This document shows positions 3,212-54,809 of a DNA stretch of 64,000 nt, one piece after another. The position numbers were made by a program, and so were the translations under genes. The notes beneath the pieces are model-generated. The model was given only the letters and a program-made list of their open reading frames with translations. It made no database searches and had not been told where the DNA came from. Each line of letters opens with the position of its first letter. The stretch's first letter is position 1. The DNA comes from a plasmid. The stretch is taken from assembly GCF_056746865.1 (NCBI RefSeq), contig NZ_JBWKMP010000003.1, one strand, 5' to 3'.

Positions 3212-3818
3212 ATCTAATTATGTTCTTCTTAATTATGATGAGTTAAACGAAAAGGGGCTGGCAAAACTCGTCAAAGAAATCGGTAAAGGAGGCTACAAGA
3301 TAGCGAGGGTGATCCCCGCCAGTAATGGCAGGAAGAAAGACGGGATCATGACGCGCACGTTTACCCTTATCGGAATCGATGAGCAGACGATGGACGTTCA
3401 GGTTAATGATACTGGTGATATTTCTGGTGTAAAACTGAACGGAAAAATTGTTCCTTTCAAGCCAGTTAAAACGCTGATGGCTTTAGGGCAATCACTGGCT
3501 GCTTTATTTAATAAAGGCGCATCATCATTTCAGAAATCATTGGCGCGTAAGTTAGCTCGTGCGGCGAAAGATATTGATGATGGGAATAAGAAAATAAAAG
3601 GCGTTAAGTCCAATGCGCAGAAACTAGCAGAGGCAAAGGAATCTCGCGATGCGATCCGCGAGGATATTGAAAGGGCCAAAGAAAAATTAAATCAGGTGCA
3701 AGGTAATTCAGACCGCGCAACAAGAGAAACTGAAATCATTAGAACCGAGATGGCGCAGGAACTGGCGAAAACTCGCGTATTGAAAGAAGAAATAGCGCGC
3801 CTGGAGGAAGATGCATGA
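3201..3818 (+). CDS. hdf: Hdf-like protein (homologue of a DarA fragment)
   Basis: ATG at 3201 has SD AAGGAG 7 nt upstream. The region ..DGIMTRTFTLIG..VKLNGKIVP..LGQSLAALFNKGASSFQK aligns with DarA ..DGQTTSIIFHSP..FLLNKRNVT..VCQALSNLIERNSAKFKK. Confidence 0.6.
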   Translation: MSNKSNYVLLNYDELNEKGLAKLVKEIGKGGYKIARVIPASNGRKKDGIMTRTFTLIGIDEQTMDVQVNDTGDISGVKLNGKIVPFKPVKTLMALGQSLAALFNKGASSFQKSLARKLARAAKDIDDGNKKIKGVKSNAQKLAEAKESRDAIREDIERAKEKLNQVQGNSDRATRETEIIRTEMAQELAKTRVLKEEIARLEEDA

Positions 3819-5740
3819 TAAAGAAACCTATTCGAATAAATATCCAGTCCACTTTTGCAGATACGCTCACTGGATATACGCCTAATCGTTGGGTGGCGGA
3901 AGATATCACCGAGGATGATTTACTTATCGAGCCTGCGACGCTGGAAGATATCGAGCTGGCCTATATGGGCAACGAAATTTTGGTAACTACCAATGAGGCA
4001 ATGTTCGAAGCTTTAACCACAACAAAATTGCGGTTAGCGCAAACAATGCGAGCATTTGTCCGGGCGCTTAATCGCGGCCTGAATGGCACTGACATTGCTG
4101 CGGGTACGGATGAGGCAGGTGAATATGAAGACGGACGTAATAGTATCGGTGGGGCAATCATTGGGCGCGTGCGCCGGGTTGCTAATATCCCTGTTGTAAC
4201 AGCACAAATACCTCTAACCGATGGACAAACGACAAGCATAATTTTCCATTCTCCAACCGCAGACGGCACAAGAATTAAAGGGGATGACGAGCTGGTTGCG
4301 TTTCAGTTTCTTCTTAACAAAAGAAACGTTACGCATGTTGTTGCGCCAATCGGTGGGCGTGATGTATCTCTGAGCCAGGTGTGTCAGGCGCTTTCTAACC
4401 TCATTGAGCGTAACAGTGCAAAATTCAAAAAAGCAAAGGAGCGCCAGGACAAAATGAAGGCTGATATTGAGGGGTATCTCAATGAAGCCGACAAGCTGGC
4501 AGAAGAACGTTCTGTGCTGATTGAGCAGGTTGAAGACGCACAGCGGGGGCTGGCAGAGAAACGCTCAACACTCAATGATATGCAGAATAAATTAGACGCA
4601 CAAAAAGCCCTTAACGGGGAATTGCAGGCTAAGCGCGATAATTTATTGTCAGCTAAGAGCCAAGGAACTAAAGAGCGTGCCTTCAATGATCAACTGCGAC
4701 ACATAAAACATAATCTTGCTACAGAAGGCCAAACAACGCTGGATAATGGTGCTGTAGTTAAGTATGTCACGTCAGGCAGTGATAGCTTTGTCACGATTGA
4801 GGCACCAGAAGGCAATTTCAGTATTGATGTCAGTGCTGTTAAAGGTGGGAGTTCAGCGGACGCTGCAACCAAATTACTTAAAGCCTATCGTGAACATAAT
4901 GCTGATCAATACAAAGTGGATGTGTTGCCGGGCCAGCCTGAGCCAACTGATCAGCCGCAGCCTGAACAGGAGCCACAACCAGCATCACATCCTGATCCCC
5001 TGGAGGTTGGTAAATATCGCTATGCGCTACAATCTCGCCCGGCGGGTGTTGGTGCGGTTCCTGAAGGAAATAAAGCTGTACTTGACCGTCCTGATCAGGC
5101 TGATCCGTATTACGAATATGCTCGTCACGGAATCATTACGTATGACCGCAAACTGACAGACGAAGAAGTCAGTCAGTACGAATTACGCTATCTGCCTGAT
5201 GACGATGAACTGAGAGGGATGGCGAACGAGCTGGTTGCGTCCAGCATGGTAAAACATATTGATGGCTATGTAGATCTGTTTGGAAGTGACCTGAAAACAT
5301 TCAAGGCGCAAGTTAAAATTCTTTTCCGCAAAGCGTTCCCGAACGTGGCATATCCACTTGGTGATGGGGAGAACCTTTTCATTATGGACGTGTATAACGC
5401 CCTTCAAAATCATTCAAGCGAAGTAAAAACAGATCCTGTAGTTGAGCCAGAATCGCAACCTGCACCAGCACCAGAACAGGAGCCGGAGCCAGAAGAAGCG
5501 GGTGAATCAGCAAGCGAAGCTGACCAGGAAGCAGATAAAGCGCTTGAGTACCTGAAATCCGTTCCGGAGCAGTTCACATCCCGCGATCTGACGGTCATAA
5601 GTGCTGAACTTGATCATGTGCAGGAAGCTGCAAACGCTCTTATCAGTGCTGGTCGATATGACGAGAACGAAGCAACTGTAGGTGCAGCCGTTGACTACCT
5701 GATCAATATTCTGGCTGAAATTCAGCAGGGAGGTGCTTAA
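3815..5740 (+). CDS. darA: DarA-like internal head / antirestriction protein
   Basis: 641 aa (P1 DarA is about 639 aa). Central coiled coil, PQPE-rich linkers, operon position after lydAB-hdf. Confidence 0.65.
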   Translation: MIKKPIRINIQSTFADTLTGYTPNRWVAEDITEDDLLIEPATLEDIELAYMGNEILVTTNEAMFEALTTTKLRLAQTMRAFVRALNRGLNGTDIAAGTDEAGEYEDGRNSIGGAIIGRVRRVANIPVVTAQIPLTDGQTTSIIFHSPTADGTRIKGDDELVAFQFLLNKRNVTHVVAPIGGRDVSLSQVCQALSNLIERNSAKFKKAKERQDKMKADIEGYLNEADKLAEERSVLIEQVEDAQRGLAEKRSTLNDMQNKLDAQKALNGELQAKRDNLLSAKSQGTKERAFNDQLRHIKHNLATEGQTTLDNGAVVKYVTSGSDSFVTIEAPEGNFSIDVSAVKGGSSADAATKLLKAYREHNADQYKVDVLPGQPEPTDQPQPEQEPQPASHPDPLEVGKYRYALQSRPAGVGAVPEGNKAVLDRPDQADPYYEYARHGIITYDRKLTDEEVSQYELRYLPDDDELRGMANELVASSMVKHIDGYVDLFGSDLKTFKAQVKILFRKAFPNVAYPLGDGENLFIMDVYNALQNHSSEVKTDPVVEPESQPAPAPEQEPEPEEAGESASEADQEADKALEYLKSVPEQFTSRDLTVISAELDHVQEAANALISAGRYDENEATVGAAVDYLINILAEIQQGGA

Positions 5741-12521: not shown

Positions 12522-12724
12522 CAAGAATGTATGATTTACATTGTCACTAAAAAACAGCATTTGATAAAAATTCTGTTGATCTTTCTAATGTTCAGGCTTA
12601 TATTCATGCCGTCGTAGCAAATTCTGCGACCAGGTTTGACAGCCTGAATACTTACGCGGACAACCGCACATTTCCGATATTGCGGTATTTTTGTGTCCGT
12701 AAAACCACGTTACGCCCGAATTAT

Positions 12725-12799
12725 GGTGGGGCGTGATGGGGAGGCTTCGGCCTGCTGGTTTCGTAAGTGCCAGTCTGTCAACCCTGTCACGTCCTGCCA
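12725..12799 (+). ncRNA. c4: C4-type antisense immunity RNA, copy 1
   Basis: A 14-17 bp terminal helix (GGGGCGTGATGGGG / CCCTGTCACGTCCT with four G.U pairs) is followed by GCCA. Inside are a UUCG hairpin, a loop containing TCGTAAGT (b') and unpaired CTGTCAA (a'). These complement ACTTACGA (12833-12840, overlapping the icd SD) and TTGACAG (12805-12811). Confidence 0.65.
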
Positions 12800-12850
12800 C
12801 CTGTTTGACAGCGGGTCGCAGGTTGTTTATCAACTTACGAGGCCGTAACT

Positions 12851-24695: not shown

Positions 24696-24725
24696 TGTTA
24701 GAAAATTAAAATTGTTTTTCTAACA
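24696..24725. promoter_or_regulatory. Inverted operator pair TGTTAGAAAATTAA-aa-TTGTTTTTCTAACA
   Basis: Bivalent operator abutting the promoter of the RNA island. Confidence 0.65.
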
Positions 24726-24727
24726 TA

Positions 24728-24756
24728 TTGATTATGTAGTTAACTTAACATAGAAT
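24728..24756 (+). promoter_or_regulatory. Sigma70-type promoter TTGATT-17 nt-TAGAAT
   Basis: Good -35 and -10 hexamers with 17-nt spacing. The predicted start falls just before the 12-bp-stem hairpin at 24763-24830. Confidence 0.55.
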
Positions 24757-24845
24757 TTTTCGTGCTGGTGGGGAGCTTCCCATGTCGCTTGCGGGTTTGA
24801 TAGTCACTTCATTGTCTTTCCCCACCAGCATCAAACAAATTTAAG

Positions 24846-24859
24846 TGTTAGAAAGTAAA
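24846..24859 (+). promoter_or_regulatory. Operator half-site TGTTAGAAAGTAAA
   Basis: Motif family member inside the RNA-island leader. Confidence 0.45.
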
Positions 24860-25129
24860 TTTTAAGGTAAGGGAAAGCTCCGGCACCGTGCAAATACATG
24901 CCCGGCAGGTTTAGTGCGTAAAGTGGTTTCAGCGAGAGCATTTTACGGAGTAAACGACAGTGACTTGAGCCACGGAAGGTCTTTTTATGGTGTTCATTGA
25001 TGATGATCTGGCAGTGAGTATGTTAAGTGGGCCAGGCTGCATCGGGTCATCATCAGTGCACATCCTCAACGTTAAGGAGGCGCAGAGTTGGGTTTTCCTC
25101 TTATTTTGCTGACTCTGAGTCTCCTTAAC

Positions 25130-25229
25130 GTTGCGGTAATGCACCTATGCGGATGTGGCCTTGCATTGTGTCTTGAAAGAATGGGGTAAGGCCGGGGATA
25201 TCCCCAGGGGGAGGCACCCCCGCTGCAAC
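25130..25229 (+). ncRNA. Structured element U1 (undescribed family, tRNA-shaped)
   Basis: Closing helix GTTGCGG / CTGCAAC. Conserved TAATGC box. Hairpin GGGGG-AGGCA-CCCCC lies 1 nt before the 3' strand. Confidence 0.55.
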
Positions 25230-25552
25230 GAACAGCCACAGACGGCAGTCGAGTGATGGAAACGTGCAAAGACTTTAAACCTCGTTACGGCTGGCGTGGC
25301 AAACGCGACAACCGAGACAGAGCGGTGACGGGCGGAGAGAGAGCCGCTTCAAGATAAAAGCCGACTATGGATTCCTTTCTGCGGGCCTTTGAAAGTGAAT
25401 CTTGCTCAGGCAGTCGGCTTTTATGTTGATACGTAGCGATAACCGCGACAGGCGCGGCGGTAAGTATGGCGGGGTTATTCCTTCCCCGTTGAGGACACCG
25501 AGTTGCCAGGTTGACCATACGCCTAAGTGGCAATACCGCGAGTGGGATATTT

Positions 25553-25577
25553 GCCCACCTTCGGGTGGGTGTTTTTT
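25553..25577 (+). terminator. Intrinsic terminator inside the RNA island
   Basis: GCCCACC-TTCG-GGTGGGT followed by GTTTTTT. Confidence 0.8.
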
Positions 25578-26039
25578 CAGTGTTTTCGTCATGGTTAGCG
25601 ACTTTGCGGCGGTTTAGAACCCGACCATTAAAGTAAATGCAAACGATGATCTGATGATGGTAGCGGCCTAAGAAGCCTGACGCCACGGGGTATGAGTCGT
25701 CCCCCGTCAAAAAAATCGACCGCAGAGTGTCCCCGTCTGTGTATTAGGGAACGGGGAGGCATAACAGGCAAGGGCGCTGGTGTGATTAACCAGATGAATG
25801 AGAAGGGTCAGGTCTTTCTGGTCAGCGCCCTTACCTGTTACGTCCCTCCCGCGTAACAGCCATTGGTTAATGGCTTTCTGGGATAATGTCTTGTAACGGG
25901 TATATCCCGTCATGCTGAAGGCGCTAATCACGCTGGAAGCCAGGGTTATGCATCCCCTGTTACCGAATTGCAGCCAGGGCGCGGTGCGCCGAAAAGCATA
26001 CGGAGGTGGAAGCCCTCGCCGGAGACGTACCCGGCAAGT

Positions 26040-26114
26040 GATGGTGTAGCTCAGTGGTAGAGCAGTTGGCTGTTAACCAACTGGTCGGTGGTTCGAATCC
26101 ATCCACCATCGCCA
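26040..26114 (+). tRNA. tRNA-Asn (anticodon GTT)
   Basis: Full cloverleaf: acceptor GATGGTG/CACCATC, D stem GCTC/GAGC, anticodon stem GTTGG/CCAAC with loop CTGTTAA, T loop TTCGAAT, encoded CCA. Confidence 0.95.
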
Positions 26115-26116
26115 AT

Positions 26117-26192
26117 GCCGGTTTAGCTCAGTTGGTAGAGCGCCTGCCTTGTAAGCAGGATGTCAGCGGTTCGAGTCCGTTAACCGGCACCA
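26117..26192 (+). tRNA. tRNA-Thr (anticodon TGT)
   Basis: Acceptor GCCGGTT/AACCGGC, anticodon stem CCTGC/GCAGG with loop CTTGTAA, T loop TTCGAGT, encoded CCA. Confidence 0.95.
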
Positions 26193-26200
26193 ACACAACA

Positions 26201-26275
26201 GGTAAGGGTATTTTGCGACGTCGGAGATCGCCGAGCTTGGCAGAGGGTTCGAATCCCTACGAAGTACCCTTACCG
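26201..26275 (+). ncRNA. Aberrant tRNA-like element (canonical T arm, 10-bp terminal helix, no cloverleaf)
   Basis: GGTAAGGGTA..TACCCTTACC terminal helix encloses GAGGGTTCGAATCCCT (T arm) displaced by a CGAAG bulge. There is no D or anticodon arm and no CCA. Confidence 0.4.
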
Positions 26276-26308
26276 TTGTGATGAATGCACAGGCTGATGT
26301 GCCGCAAC
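26275..26308 (+). ncRNA. Structured element U4 (minimal copy)
   Basis: GTTGTG / CGCAAC helix (one U.G pair) encloses ATGAAT plus hairpin GCACA-GGCTGA-TGTGC. Confidence 0.45.
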
Positions 26309-26380
26309 TACAGTAGTGCGCGCTTTGCGGGGCTTGCTACAACCCTGTGTCGGAGTTCAGCACCGACCATCACAATCACT

Positions 26381-26467
26381 GGAGAGTAGGGAGCATGGTG
26401 CTCAAGCGGTCTTGAAAACCGTCCCATTGCGCAAGCGATGATGGTTCGATTCCATTACTCTCCGCCA
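26381..26467 (+). tRNA. Class II tRNA, anticodon TGA (tRNA-Ser-like) with short D arm
   Basis: Acceptor GGAGAGT/ACTCTCC, discriminator G plus CCA, anticodon loop CTTGAAA. Long variable arm ATTGC-GCAA-GCGAT. T loop TTCGATT. The D arm is only GAGC-ATGGT-GCTC. Confidence 0.8.
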
Positions 26468-26575
26468 GCGCAACGTTAAGAGTATTTGGCTAATTAAGCG
26501 AATGCCGGAAGCAGAACCGGATCACCAAATGCGTACAGGCGTCATCGCCGCCCAGTCAGCCAAATGCTCTTACCA

Positions 26576-26715
26576 TTGCGGTGAATGCGGCTAAGCGCAC
26601 GCGGAACAGTTAAAACAGTAAAGGTGGTCTTTTTACTGGCGTAACGAGAATCCATAAGTGATCCGGCGTTAATTGTTAACTGGTTAACGTCACCGGGAGG
26701 CACCCGGCACCGCAA
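26576..26715 (+). ncRNA. Structured element U2
   Basis: Closing helix TTGCGGTG / CACCGCAA. Conserved AATGCGGCTAAGCGC. Hairpin CCGGG-AGGCA-CCCGG abuts the 3' strand. Confidence 0.55.
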
Positions 26716-26758
26716 CCTAACAGCAATGGCGTTTTGTCTTAAAAGGTGGCTGCAAGTG

Positions 26759-26887
26759 ATGGATTTTTGGGCGTTTGCCGATAAAAACCCGGAGTGGACA
26801 TTATTGTTTCTGCTGGTGGTTGCATACGGGGTAGAGCAAGCGGCAAAAGCCTTACGCGGTTCTGGCAAAAAGCGTAAGCGTAATTAA
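26759..26887 (+). CDS. Candidate 42-aa membrane peptide (below the ORF-track cutoff)
   Basis: MDFWAFADKNPEWTLLFLLVVAYGVEQAAKALRGSGKKRKRN has one TM helix and a basic tail. SD AAGGTGG lies about 9 nt upstream. Confidence 0.35.
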   Translation: MDFWAFADKNPEWTLLFLLVVAYGVEQAAKALRGSGKKRKRN

Positions 26888-26896
26888 CAGTAATCT

Positions 26897-26972
26897 GGCC
26901 CTTTAGCTCAGTGGTTAGAGCGGGCGACTCATAATCGCACGATCACCGGTTCAAGTCCGGTAGGGGCCACCA
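26897..26972 (+). tRNA. tRNA with anticodon CAT, ileX-like (tRNA-Ile2 via lysidine, or Met)
   Basis: Very similar to my recollection of E. coli ileX (GGCCC(C/T)TTAGCTCAGTGGTTAGAGC..GGCGACTCATAATCGC..GGTTCAAGTCC..GGGGCCACCA). P1 also encodes such a tRNA. Confidence 0.9.
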
Positions 26973-27196
26973 CATTTGGTTGTAACACGGCGTATGGCAC
27001 ATGCGTCGTTAGCGGTCTGGTGTAGCTGTTAGGTACCTTTTACTAACACTGCATGGGCACACCAGGTAGCCGGAATGTGCAAGCCCCGTTCATAGCGTCG
27101 GACTGCGGATTCACCATCCTGGCGATTCGGTGTGACAGCCGGAAGAGCACGGCGTACAACAGGAAAAGGCGTTTAATTAGCGTGAGCGCCGTTTCC

Positions 27197-27311
27197 GTTG
27201 TGGTAATTGCGGCTATGCGCTCGTGACGAAGCCATTTTCATTCACTACGTTCTGATAAGTGTCGTCGCCAGGCGTGGCTAACCTGGCAGGTGGAGGCACC
27301 ACCGCCACAAC
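27197..27311 (+). ncRNA. Structured element U3
   Basis: Closing helix GTTGTGG / CCACAAC, compensatory relative to U1 and U2. Conserved TAATTGCGGCTATGCGC. Hairpin GGTGG-AGGCA-CCACC lies 1 nt before the 3' strand. Confidence 0.55.
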
Positions 27312-27424
27312 TCCTTTCAATTCATCATATAGCCGCTCAGGCTGTAACTCTTAATTAATACGAAGTTACGACGTCACTACCGGTTCAGCCGGGGGATAGT
27401 CGCGCGTGTAAAAAAGGAGACGTT

Positions 27425-28000
27425 ATGTTAACGGCGAACGATAACGCGTATTTAGAAGATGATCTCGTTTTGAGTGACTTTATAGGGCGACGAGAATGCT
27501 GGACGCAAAAGCGCGAGGAGCTTTATGCAGCGTTAGTTCGTAAAGGCGTCAACATCGAAACCGCACAGAACGGTGATATGACAGTGGTAAGTGTTGGACT
27601 GCACGGCGTAAGTGTGTCAGCAATCAATCATGAGCCGTACATTGCGTTATCCGAGTCGATGGTAAGGTTAGTTAAGTTCCTGAAGTACACAGAAGCGAAT
27701 AACGTGCTCATCGCCAAAAAGAACATCCCGTTCTCATCGGCCTTTTACTGGATGATGAAGGGGCTTGATGCCCGGCGAACATCATGGCCTAAAGGGAGCT
27801 ATATATCGATGCTCCGTGGCAGTGTTGGTAGCAAAGAAAAGCTCGTCGAATTCCTGCCGGAAGAGGCATTCGATATTGTTGAAGGTTGTGATGTGATGGT
27901 TATGCCTCGCCTGGTAATGATGAATGGGGATTTACAGGCGCAGACAGACTGGTTTGCAACTGGAGTTGATATTATCGCTACTGACTGGGAGGTTTTTTGA
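27425..28000 (+). CDS. Hypothetical protein with C-terminal DUF2829 (Tad2-like) domain
   Basis: 191 aa with SD AAGGAG. C-terminus ..FYWMMKGLDARRTSWPKGSYI....IIATDWEVF. Confidence 0.7.
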   Translation: MLTANDNAYLEDDLVLSDFIGRRECWTQKREELYAALVRKGVNIETAQNGDMTVVSVGLHGVSVSAINHEPYIALSESMVRLVKFLKYTEANNVLIAKKNIPFSSAFYWMMKGLDARRTSWPKGSYISMLRGSVGSKEKLVEFLPEEAFDIVEGCDVMVMPRLVMMNGDLQAQTDWFATGVDIIATDWEVF

Positions 28001-28380: not shown

Positions 28381-28410
28381 TGTTAGCAAATTGATATTAA
28401 TTTTCTAATA
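28381..28410. promoter_or_regulatory. Inverted operator pair TGTTAGCAAATTGA-ta-TTAATTTTCTAATA
   Basis: Upstream of the Lpa-position gene. In P1, lpa is operator-controlled. Confidence 0.6.
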
Positions 28411-28487
28411 CATCATGTTTTTGACAGTCTTCTCAGTATTAACAAGCTGATTATCATCCCCTCGGTCTTTTTCTATCCGGGGGATAA

Positions 28488-54496: not shown

Positions 54497-54601
54497 GAAA
54501 ACACACAGTTGCGCCCTGGCATTATCGTGGGGTATATTTCTACGGCACCTTAGAAAAACGGGTGCCGGGATTGGAACCCCGGATAATGTCAAAGGCGACA
54601 C

Positions 54602-54624
54602 AGACGCCGAACGCGTCTTTTTTT
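54602..54624 (+). terminator. Intrinsic terminator between the a1/b1 sites and c4 copy 2
   Basis: AGACGC-CGAAC-GCGTCT followed by TTTTTTT. Confidence 0.75.
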
Positions 54625-54673
54625 GTGTCATGCCATCGCACAGCCATACTTAGCGTTTAGCTCAGAGATCAAT

Positions 54674-54753
54674 GGTAGTGCTGGCTGGGCTGCCGAAAGG
54701 CAGGCCGGTTCCCTTTGACGCCGGTAGTTCCAACCCAGTCAGTGCTACCGCCA
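54674..54753 (+). ncRNA. c4: C4-type antisense immunity RNA, copy 2
   Basis: A 16-bp terminal helix GGTAGTGCTGGCTGGG / CCCAGTCAGTGCTACC (three G.U pairs) is followed by GCCA. Inside are a GAAA-tetraloop hairpin, a loop with CCTTTGAC (b') and unpaired GTTCCAA (a'). These complement GTCAAAGG (54791-54798, overlapping the icd SD) and TTGGAAC (54760-54766). It is 80 nt, compared with about 77 nt for P1 C4. Confidence 0.7.
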
Positions 54754-54809
54754 TTGAGATTGGAACCTCACGCGGTAGCTCCTTAACTTAGTCAAAGGAG
54801 GCTGCCAAT

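Follow-up and report, generated by a model that had tools for sequence, protein, structure and literature searches.

Between positions 25,130 and 27,311 of the 64,000-nt stretch of plasmid DNA analyzed here (the window; contig NZ_JBWKMP010000003.1 of assembly GCF_056746865.1) lie four paralogous RNA domains, U1 to U4. Each has the core structure of STnc100, a phage-borne small RNA (sRNA), with a fold supported by covariation; each is joined to a hairpin that covaries as well; and all are on the sense strand of one operon, together with tRNAs. That U1–U4 belong to the STnc100/PasD family is very likely. We lean, with less assurance, toward a more particular reading: that they are divergent copies of the STnc100/PasD core that lack the terminator, each paired with a long upstream hairpin. 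New here are the absence of tail and terminator, the abutting, covarying hairpin that begins with YAAC, and the occurrence of such modules at the dicF locus of Escherichia coli K-12, where cuts by RNase III fall in their helices. A sequence-only reading had described the elements as an undescribed, tRNA-shaped RNA. Its central claims—a structured RNA of the + strand, with genuine compensatory changes, interleaved with tRNA genes—have held up; the novelty and the likeness to tRNA have not.

The units share one architecture: a closing helix of 8–9 bp, a RAAU junction, a 5-bp hairpin with a bulged A, a variable center and, at the 3' strand, a 5-bp hairpin with an AGGCA loop. U1 (25130–25229, + strand; 57.9 bits with the covariance model R1, introduced below) closes through GUUGCGGU/GCUGCAAC, with two G.U pairs, and carries the 5' hairpin GCACC-UAUGC-GG(A)UGU, two central hairpins and the 3' hairpin GGGGG-AGGCA-CCCCC. 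U2 (26575–26716, +; 80.1 bits), the closest to canonical STnc100, closes through UUGCGGUG/CACCGCAA around GCGGC-UAAGC-GC(A)CGC, three central hairpins and CCGGG-AGGCA-CCCGG. In U3 (27197–27311, +; 73.8 bits) the closing helix is GUUGUGGU/GCCACAAC, and the hairpins are GCGGC-UAUGC-GC(U)CGU, one long central one and GGUGG-AGGCA-CCACC. These three stand where they had been placed, with the features ascribed to them, give or take a nucleotide at the ends of U2 (26575/6 and 26715/6). U4 is real, too, but the minimal, 34-nt unit proposed for it, GTTGTG paired with CGCAAC, is wrong: GUUGUGAUG (26275–26283) pairs with CAUCACAAU (26368–26376), instead, in a 9-bp closing helix on which the model and the minimum free energy (MFE) fold agree. 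The unit is thus 102 nt long (26275–26376, +; 22.6 bits, E 6e-4 with R1) and ends 4 nt before tRNA-Ser. Its hairpins are GCACA-GGCUGA-UGUGC at the 5' side, two central ones, and GUCGG-AGUUCAGCA-CCGAC flush with the 3' strand. Homologues of U4 score 27.7 bits on the D6-like viral contig L074 and 30.4 bits in RCS47; the RCS47 copy keeps the long-range helix and has a compensatory change in the 3' hairpin, and the internal CGCAAC is absent from it.

Several details of the description shift accordingly. The closing helix is present, but longer than the 6–8 bp it was given; the hairpin before the 3' box is there, too, but with no gap rather than one of 0–1 nt; and the hairpin after the 5' box exists but is better defined as a stem of 5 bp from which an A bulges out and which is topped by a UAWGC pentaloop. 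The AGGCA loop, said to be invariant, is AAGCA in the U2 homologue of phage P1 and AGWUCAGCA in units of the U4 type. What had been overlooked is that the GTTG of each 5' box can pair with an upstream CAAC, too, as the base of the long hairpin that abuts the unit. Within the phage collection, a near-identical copy of U1 is found in D6 only, and also on the D6-like viral contigs L074 and L099; homologues of U3, 69–79% identical, occur in phages of Klebsiella and E. coli.

Chance repeats are ruled out by motif statistics and by a scan of the whole window with the model. All three exact GGAGGCACC sites of the 64 kb belong to the + strand of this 2.1-kb stretch, and 5-bp hairpins with an AGGCA loop number three here against ~0.8 expected (entire window, both strands). 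R1 was trained on window-type and canonical copies alike, with U1–U3 included and U4 left out; run over the whole window with filters off it gave four matches only, all on the + strand, the next best scoring 11.6 bits (E 0.39). The homologues came from annotated phages and from a pattern scan of viral contigs; the pattern contains GGAGGCACC and CRCAAC, and candidates were then filtered for at least six of eight closing pairs. In bacterial genomes a bare 15-base pattern yields mostly chance matches, and we used that set as a negative control: the model called one of the 80 bacterial and archaeal loci listed, an E. coli locus. HK022 and phi80 (67 kb) gave no family match with R1 or with a second model, R2.

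The structure of the units is real. Extracting sequences by their AGGCA loop and RAAT junction, with no pairing criterion, gave 6.55 of 8 closing pairs; shuffling the partners lowered this to 4.31 ± 0.24 (never above 5.0 in 1,000 shuffles). In the 3' hairpin 4.86 of 5 pairs formed, against 3.56. RNAalifold, working from a MAFFT alignment of 38 non-redundant sequences, independently finds the closing helix, the bulged 5' hairpin and the 3' hairpin: 14 pairs, eight of them compensatory (double changes), with 0–1 broken cells per pair. When the full 19-pair structure is imposed on the same 38 sequences, 94.8% of cells pair, compared with 79.3% in column shuffles (0 of 500 reach the observed figure) and 33–52% in slid registers, and double changes occur at 11 pairs. 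A model-based alignment of 77 distinct sequences behaves the same way, with 94.7% versus 78.8% paired and double changes at 13 pairs. The 5' hairpin, never a selection criterion, is 98.9–99.7% paired, and three of its five pairs covary, with flips from C-G to G-C. In the inner helices of the 77 sequences ~67 G.U cells stand against at most four non-pairs; because the former so far outnumber the latter, the RNA is evidently read from the + (sense) strand.

The family to which this structure belongs emerges from comparisons in both directions. With thresholds relaxed, the STnc100 model of Rfam (RF02076) aligns U2 at model positions 31–147, helix for helix. The score is 40.8 bits, where the gathering score is 47 (E 8.7e-7 in 2.8 kb and 6.9e-8 in 221 nt), and the closing helix, the GAAU, the 5' hairpin and CCGGGAGGCACCCGG all correspond. 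Positions 31–147 amount to the core of the family, and its helices and 3' hairpin with GAGGCA loop are all found. U1–U3 and canonical copies of STnc100 fold into one common covarying consensus, of which U4 keeps the helices while its loops are altered. R1 had been trained on both kinds of copy, and so R2 was built from 19 window-type sequences only, all of them rejected by Rfam. It finds all 21 canonical copies that were tested (E 8e-9 to 8e-5), among them the STnc100 of the Stx2 phage PA2 (42.1 bits, E 1.9e-7), which lies between stxB and an esterase gene and scores 207.7 bits with Rfam. Since Rfam aligns U2 and R2 finds the canonical copies, the relationship holds both ways. Intermediates exist as well: copies with GTTG/CAAC boxes and an upstream hairpin at loci L028 (60.3 bits) and L058 (54.4 bits) pass the Rfam threshold. 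Rfam accepts the copies that bear terminators and rejects those of D6, P1, K-12, LASTA, LLS, L014 and L077. 'Undescribed', then, is not what these elements are: the sub-threshold match of U2, the reciprocal detection by R2 and the intermediates that pass Rfam all speak against it. A confident Rfam match, which by the sequence-only reading would refute novelty, came up in a weakened form only, as the sub-threshold match plus the reciprocal model evidence.

Canonical STnc100 copies, like the window units, occur in long phage transcripts, often near tRNAs, and they have the same core, down to the CCGGG-AGGCA-CCCGG hairpin flush with the 3' strand. They differ in what follows. In PA2, for example, the core is succeeded by a single-stranded stretch and an intrinsic terminator; in canonical copies generally this addition (~20–25 nt of single strand plus the terminator, model positions 148–206) makes a stand-alone sRNA gene, in Stx2 phages one situated 75–100 nt 3' of stx2B. 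The window units have GTTG/CAAC boxes and an abutting upstream hairpin, instead, and score below the gathering threshold; their 5' hairpin is of the GCGGC- or GCACC-type rather than the CCCCC-type. Zhu, Shabalina and Storz (2026; 10.64898/2026.05.13.724894) report that PasD is related to STnc100 by structure and descent; both are Hfq-associated prophage sRNAs seen on Northern blots, and PasD is an Hfq-dependent sRNA validated in that way and by sequencing of interacting RNAs after their ligation (RIL-seq; PMC8550237). PasD1 and PasD2, of lambdoid prophages in enteropathogenic E. coli, resemble the window units in being prophage-encoded, near the Q antiterminator and present in more than one copy. 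They differ in being discrete sRNAs of 80–240 nt with Hfq-dependent stability, and their link to the window units runs through STnc100 only.

Each unit is abutted on its 5' side by a predicted hairpin, all four on the + strand. H1 (25067–25133) consists of 15 bp at its base, CAACGTTAAGGAGGC/GTCTCCTTAACGTTG, with a 9-bp stem above them (MFE −36 kcal/mol), and its last 4 nt are the GTTG of U1. H2 (26469–26580) is founded on a basal duplex of ~21 bp, CGCAA.G.UAAGAGUAUUUGGCU with AGCCAAAUGCUCUUA.C.UUGCG (MFE −42 kcal/mol). H3 (27155–27202), shorter than the others at ~6 + 5 + 8 bp, has the base UACAAC/GUUGUG, a bulged A and then GGAAA.GGCG.../...CGCC.UUUCC (MFE −21.6 kcal/mol). H4 (26194–26280) begins similarly, with CACAAC/GUUGUG and a bulged A, and goes on with GGUAAGGGUA/UACCCUUACC, for a predicted 6 + 17 bp. 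The predicted stems are extended duplexes of about two helical turns, as expected of RNase III processing hairpins like that at dicF. H4, situated right after tRNA-Thr, contains at 26245–26257 a perfect T-arm-like GGGTTCGAATCCC, and for this reason looks like a degenerate tRNA remnant; no tRNA is called in it by ARAGORN or the Rfam tRNA model, and none in its P1 equivalents. The P1 hairpins that correspond to H4 carry GGGTTCATATCCC and GGGGTCATATCCC (locus L003, ~3500–3530 and 3800–3820).

No terminator was found after any of the units in a scan of the region, which contains a single one, at 25552–25577. U1–U4 thus have nothing corresponding to model positions 148–206 of STnc100, a part that PA2 and L021 possess as a terminator. 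Among the 77 distinct copies of the family, those that start with GTTG or ATTG almost all have a hairpin of 15–26 bp that includes this GTTG, and mostly have no terminator; copies whose 5' strand differs carry a terminator ~40 nt downstream, and in them this hairpin is missing. In all, 56 of the 77 have a hairpin of 10 bp or more directly at their 5' end. The 33 distinct hairpins show extensive covariation; their first four letters are CAAC (23), TAAC (7), TAAT (2) or TAGC (1). The three boxes CAAC, GTTG and CAAC occur as a set in 26 of 48 cases, and in the single variant with ATTG the upstream box is TAAT and the downstream one CAAT. When exact transcripts of hairpin plus unit are folded, the structure in which the unit is closed lies within 0–2 kcal/mol of the optimum, so the two pairings open to GTTG are nearly isoenergetic and not strictly exclusive.

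Without exception, copies of the family lie within long phage transcripts and on their sense strand. They follow CI-type repressors (L014, LLS, Eeyore, Tritos and Qin), lie between the Q antiterminator (PF03589) and the holin and lysozyme genes (L016, L024, L028, L032 and L058), or follow stxB (PA2) or the lysis genes (L077, SopranoGao and LASTA); the ban operon of P1-type phages has them, too. In three uncultivated lambdoid phages, complete STnc100-type sRNA genes are arrayed three to six together, ~250 nt apart, between Q and the lysis genes: L021 (372–989), L024 (1725–2342 and 3213–3286) and L032 (4379–5460 and 8379–8516). Every copy in the L021 array has an A/U-rich stretch and a strong terminator. 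A match to isrI lies between copies in L032. tRNAs are nearby in ~16 of 54 loci—L028 interleaves units with four of them, and the LASTA homologue ends 4 nt before a tRNA-Arg—and in the other 38 there are none, so the association with tRNAs is frequent but facultative. One U2-type element, H69, is 79% identical and comes from a 254-kb record labelled as Aeromonas phage AP1 (MT713136, 249990–250113), the other hosts being enterobacterial; a chimeric assembly may lie behind this, or a genuine transfer.

A further relative is in E. coli K-12 MG1655. The spacer between dicF and dicB in the Qin prophage (L013, NC_000913.3) holds a domain of the STnc100-core type that scores 77.6 bits with R1 and lies below the Rfam threshold. 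This U2 homologue (L013 1155–1282, or ~1649454–1649581 of NC_000913.3) is enclosed by a helix of 28 bp. Of 5,426 complete E. coli genomes, 4,720 have the 381-bp dicF region, and among the eight best records listed none annotates a feature beneath the match; K-12 annotates dicF alone there. RNase III makes the 5' end of the 190-nt species of DicF (10.1101/2023.04.14.536235) and the 3' end of the 72-nt species (PMC5069750). Reckoned from the 3' end of DicF, the former lies at ~L013:946, on the 3' arm of the hairpin that precedes dicF. The latter comes out at ~L013:1154, on the 5' strand of the U2 homologue's extended closing helix. As these cuts map to helices of the modules, they offer the first mechanistic handle on the family, and one that can be tested directly in K-12 with the rnc and rne strains already at hand.

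The dicBF operon of Qin and the island in the window have much in common: homologous modules, a long upstream hairpin based on GTTGTGG with a U2 homologue between dicF and dicB, and a polycistronic, repressor-controlled organization, with the RNase III cuts mapping into the helices of the modules. They differ in that the window has no DicF; tRNAs and other modules fill the slots, and the short terminator hairpin is another one. They differ, too, in the closing helix, which in the K-12 homologue is an RNase III-type duplex itself and in the window is 8–9 bp. In T7 early mRNA, hairpins between functional units (R0.3–R1.3) are cut by host RNase III, releasing the units as separate RNAs. The long hairpins in the window would punctuate a polycistronic phage transcript in the same manner, by inference and with no claim of homology; the T7 sites are single hairpins with an internal loop, uncoupled from any conserved multi-helix domain.

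How might such modules work? The units would lie on the sense strand of a single early operon under repressor control, the D6/P1 counterpart of the ban operon of P1 and the dicBF operons of lambdoid phages. There is one promoter-like site in the region, a predicted sigma-70-like TTGATT-17-TAGAAT at 24728–24756 (+), and there are no terminators after the units; on these grounds the whole island is probably transcribed from 24728 as one precursor, under control of the phage repressor. By analogy with P1, whose C1-controlled promoter Pban has the same position, this site is probably the start of the operon that holds all of the units. RNase III would then cut the H duplexes, as the K-12 cuts flanking DicF within equivalent helices suggest by homology, RNase P and RNase E would trim the adjoining tRNAs, and the units would be released. 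The freed GTTG would pair with the 3' CAAC—plausibly so, given a closed fold within reach of the optimum even before cleavage—and fold the domain up as a compact junction of several helices, its two ends buried; this ought to make for a stable RNA. Whether RNase III processes the units in this way we regard as an even bet. More speculatively, the invariant RAAU, UAWGC and AGGCA elements might serve a host partner as scaffold or docking surface, and the hypervariable center might confer a function specific to each copy, most simply by base pairing as in PasD and STnc100. Any one such downstream function, named specifically, is improbable at best.

A bolder synthesis would make the whole composite, YAAC-hairpin-GTTG-domain-CAAC, a distinct and widespread phage RNA cassette in which the hairpin gates folding of the domain, the loops bind a host factor, tRNAs and sRNAs are inserted into polycistronic transcripts, and a family of effector RNAs with variable centers is delivered—one hitherto unrecognized mechanism behind STnc100, PasD, the flanks of dicF in K-12 and the units of P1 and D6. 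We find the idea rather doubtful. If it were true, the host factor might be an RNase, the ribosome or an RNA chaperone, for instance.

A number of observations weigh against reading U1–U4 as terminator-less STnc100/PasD cores coupled to processing hairpins. U2 is under the gathering score of RF02076, and U1, U3 and U4 have no Rfam match at E up to 10. The MFE fold recovers the structure of U4, but is no better than those of shuffled sequences (z = −1.46). The scan pattern and its filter inflate pairing in the closing helix and limit the variation that can be seen in the 3' hairpin. Three-way covariation of YAAC, GTTG and CAAC is suggestive but thin, coming down essentially to one variant. Cleavage by RNase III is carried over to the D6/P1-like units from a lambdoid homologue; the cut positions in K-12 were worked out by arithmetic from published RNA lengths and the annotated ends of dicF; and the closing helices in the window, unlike the 28-bp helix of K-12, are too short to be RNase III sites. 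Canonical Hfq-dependent sRNAs require a terminator with a 3' U-tail, and since U1–U4 have none, a trans-acting, Hfq-dependent function cannot simply be transferred to them. Nor does a pure processing role explain why the loops are so highly conserved.

The last two points bear on the two most serious alternatives. The units could be ordinary trans-acting, Hfq-dependent base-pairing sRNAs, matured from the operon transcript, with the center as seed and the hairpins incidental. Members of the family do bind Hfq and have many RIL-seq targets, the center is hypervariable within a fixed scaffold, and L021, L024 and L032 show that full sRNA genes can stand in tandem arrays. Yet all four units are without the A/U-rich single-stranded stretch and intrinsic terminator, their variable centers are mainly base-paired in the predicted folds, and the tight, covarying coupling to the upstream hairpin is left unaccounted for, so that we think this explanation unlikely. 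At the other extreme, the hairpin and the closed domain might be cis-acting punctuation only, signals for processing and insulation by which the ends of neighboring tRNAs, sRNAs and mRNAs are defined and protected, with an excised domain that does nothing. The way in which units abut tRNAs—U4 before tRNA-Ser, the LASTA copy before tRNA-Arg, the interleaved ones of L028—suits this. So do the RNase III cuts in the literature, located on either side of DicF in these helices. Neither RNase III nor RNase P needs loops and a junction near-invariant in distant phages in order to recognize a substrate, however, and with no tRNA close by at 38 of 54 loci, and with canonical copies being stand-alone sRNA genes, punctuation alone is less likely still.

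Three further explanations strike us as far less probable than either of these. The description 'tRNA-shaped' invites the thought that the closing helix and 3' hairpin imitate the minihelix of acceptor and T-arm, recruiting RNase P, RNase Z, the CCA-adding enzyme or some other tRNA-binding factor. The two helices are flush, so coaxial stacking is possible, the units sit among tRNAs, and the precursor of P1's C4 RNA is a known substrate of RNase P. But the stack would be 13–14 bp (8–9 + 5) and not 12, the loop is the 5-nt AGGCA with no T-loop motif (7 nt, TTCRANY), and no 3' (R)CCA follows, the flanks being GAAC, CCUA and UCCU. ARAGORN and the Rfam tRNA and tmRNA models match none of the units at E up to 10—with RF00005 and its clan, as with ARAGORN, only the four true tRNAs are called—and most members of the family are not near tRNAs at all; mimicry is very improbable, and by none of these tests are the units tRNA-like. 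Processive antitermination in cis, in the manner of the put RNAs of HK022, would let polymerase read through the terminators that do exist inside these operons, and the units have the positions of lambdoid signals, following Q or, where the early-left operon begins, directly following the repressor gene. In put RNA two stem-loops make up a V of 70 nt, and no closing helix is present (PMC9378689); the units are built otherwise. R1 with filters off reached 8.3 bits at best in HK022 20000–40751, put regions included, and 11 bits (E 0.57) with phi80 combined. The K-12 homologue of U2, moreover, is downstream of the DicF terminator, and each arrayed copy precedes an efficient-looking terminator of its own, all of which makes antitermination hardly credible. 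Equally slim are the chances that the boxes matter as DNA, as joints at which tRNA and accessory cassettes are shuffled by recombination. Homology breakpoints coincide with unit ends—the match to lambdoid phages stops exactly at the end of U2—and P1 and SJ46 keep the ends of U2 around a replaced interior, while the cargo between units differs among P1, P7, D6, RCS47 and Ro157c2. DNA joints would have no need of the excess of G.U cells over non-pairs, which would be A.C mismatches on the other strand, nor of an orientation always sense to the surrounding genes, nor of compensatory changes that preserve pairing rather than sequence; and no recombinase accompanies the units. Exchange at these patches more likely comes about as a side effect of conserved RNA modules; the patches probably do promote the mosaicism of P1-like phages.

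Two further candidates were tried and rejected. Integron attC-like sites also have GTT/AAC boxes, but here the order of the boxes is inverted with respect to RYYYAAC...GTTRRRY, there is no integrase, and the G.U asymmetry is of the RNA type. The 'M3' RNA of phi80, a historical substrate of RNase P, is annotated as a homologue of oop RNA, and phi80 is without a model match.

STnc100 and PasD are abundant prophage RNAs of pathogenic E. coli and Salmonella. Their core is, on this analysis, far more widespread than the curated model captures, extending to P1/D6 phage-plasmids, phages of Klebsiella and the dicF–dicB spacer. It exists in two modes: one as a stand-alone sRNA gene with a terminator, the other as a terminator-less module, coupled to a hairpin, in operons of tRNAs and sRNAs.

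The region as a whole (24700–27500) is best matched by Escherichia phage D6, 91% identical over 86% of its length; P1, P7, RCS47 and SJ46 match it piecewise. In P1 the equivalent stretch is the C1-repressed ban operon, the annotation of which includes a 'dicF-like region' and tRNAs. Immediately 5' of the promoter-like site in the window is an inverted repeat, GTTAGAAAA/TTTTTCTAAC (24697–24724), that resembles a repressor operator. Motifs of the GTGTTAGAAA-type recur at 24697–24724, 24846–24855 and 28381–28412, that is, as the inverted repeat beside the promoter-like site and again at the far end; they are candidate operators for the phage's C1-type repressor and as such would bracket the RNA island.

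ARAGORN and Rfam together identify four tRNAs in the region of the units, all on the + strand: tRNA-Asn(GTT) and tRNA-Thr(TGT) at 26040–26192 (ARAGORN/Rfam), tRNA-Ser(TGA) at 26381–26467 (ARAGORN) and tRNA-Met(CAT) at 26897–26972 (ARAGORN), the P1 homologue of which is annotated as tRNA-Ile. A dicF-like segment at 25443–25539 (+) is 92% identical to the sequence just 5' of dicF in lambdoid prophages; it belongs to the same RNA island, yet has no covariance-model match. Right after it, at 25540–25577, comes a short sequence other than DicF that ends in a strong intrinsic terminator, GCCCACCTTCGGGTGGGTGTTTTTT. This terminator (25552–25577, +), the only clear one in the region, occupies the slot that the DicF terminator has in lambdoid phages. 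Rfam finds no DicF at 25540–25577, and the sequence may be an unrelated small RNA in the DicF slot. Between U2 and tRNA-Met, at 26726–26887, is an open reading frame (ORF) of 53 amino acids (MAFCLKRWLQVMDFWAF...), in the slot that tciA, tciB and tciC have in P1 and D6; tciA is absent from the phage of the window.

P1 itself (L003, NC_005856) offers some further particulars. An extra mini-unit of 57 nt, GTTGTGA...TCACAAC, is found at ~3356–3412 of its locus. At 3244–3813 (record 69472–70041) the minus-strand ORFs plp and upl overlie the + strand RNA modules; plp also extends over 30 nt of tRNA-Thr. Both look doubtful as coding sequences, and several of the small ORFs that P1-like phages have annotated here may be spurious calls on top of structured RNA. 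Elsewhere in the window, two loci match the C4 antisense RNA (RF01695), at 12719–12804 and 54668–54755, as is typical of the immunity regions of P1-like phages. With their surroundings (12598–12804 and 54545–54755), one has an a1/b1 target element beside it and the other a match to isrK, and from their sequences they appear to be two immI-like modules, ~42 kb apart.

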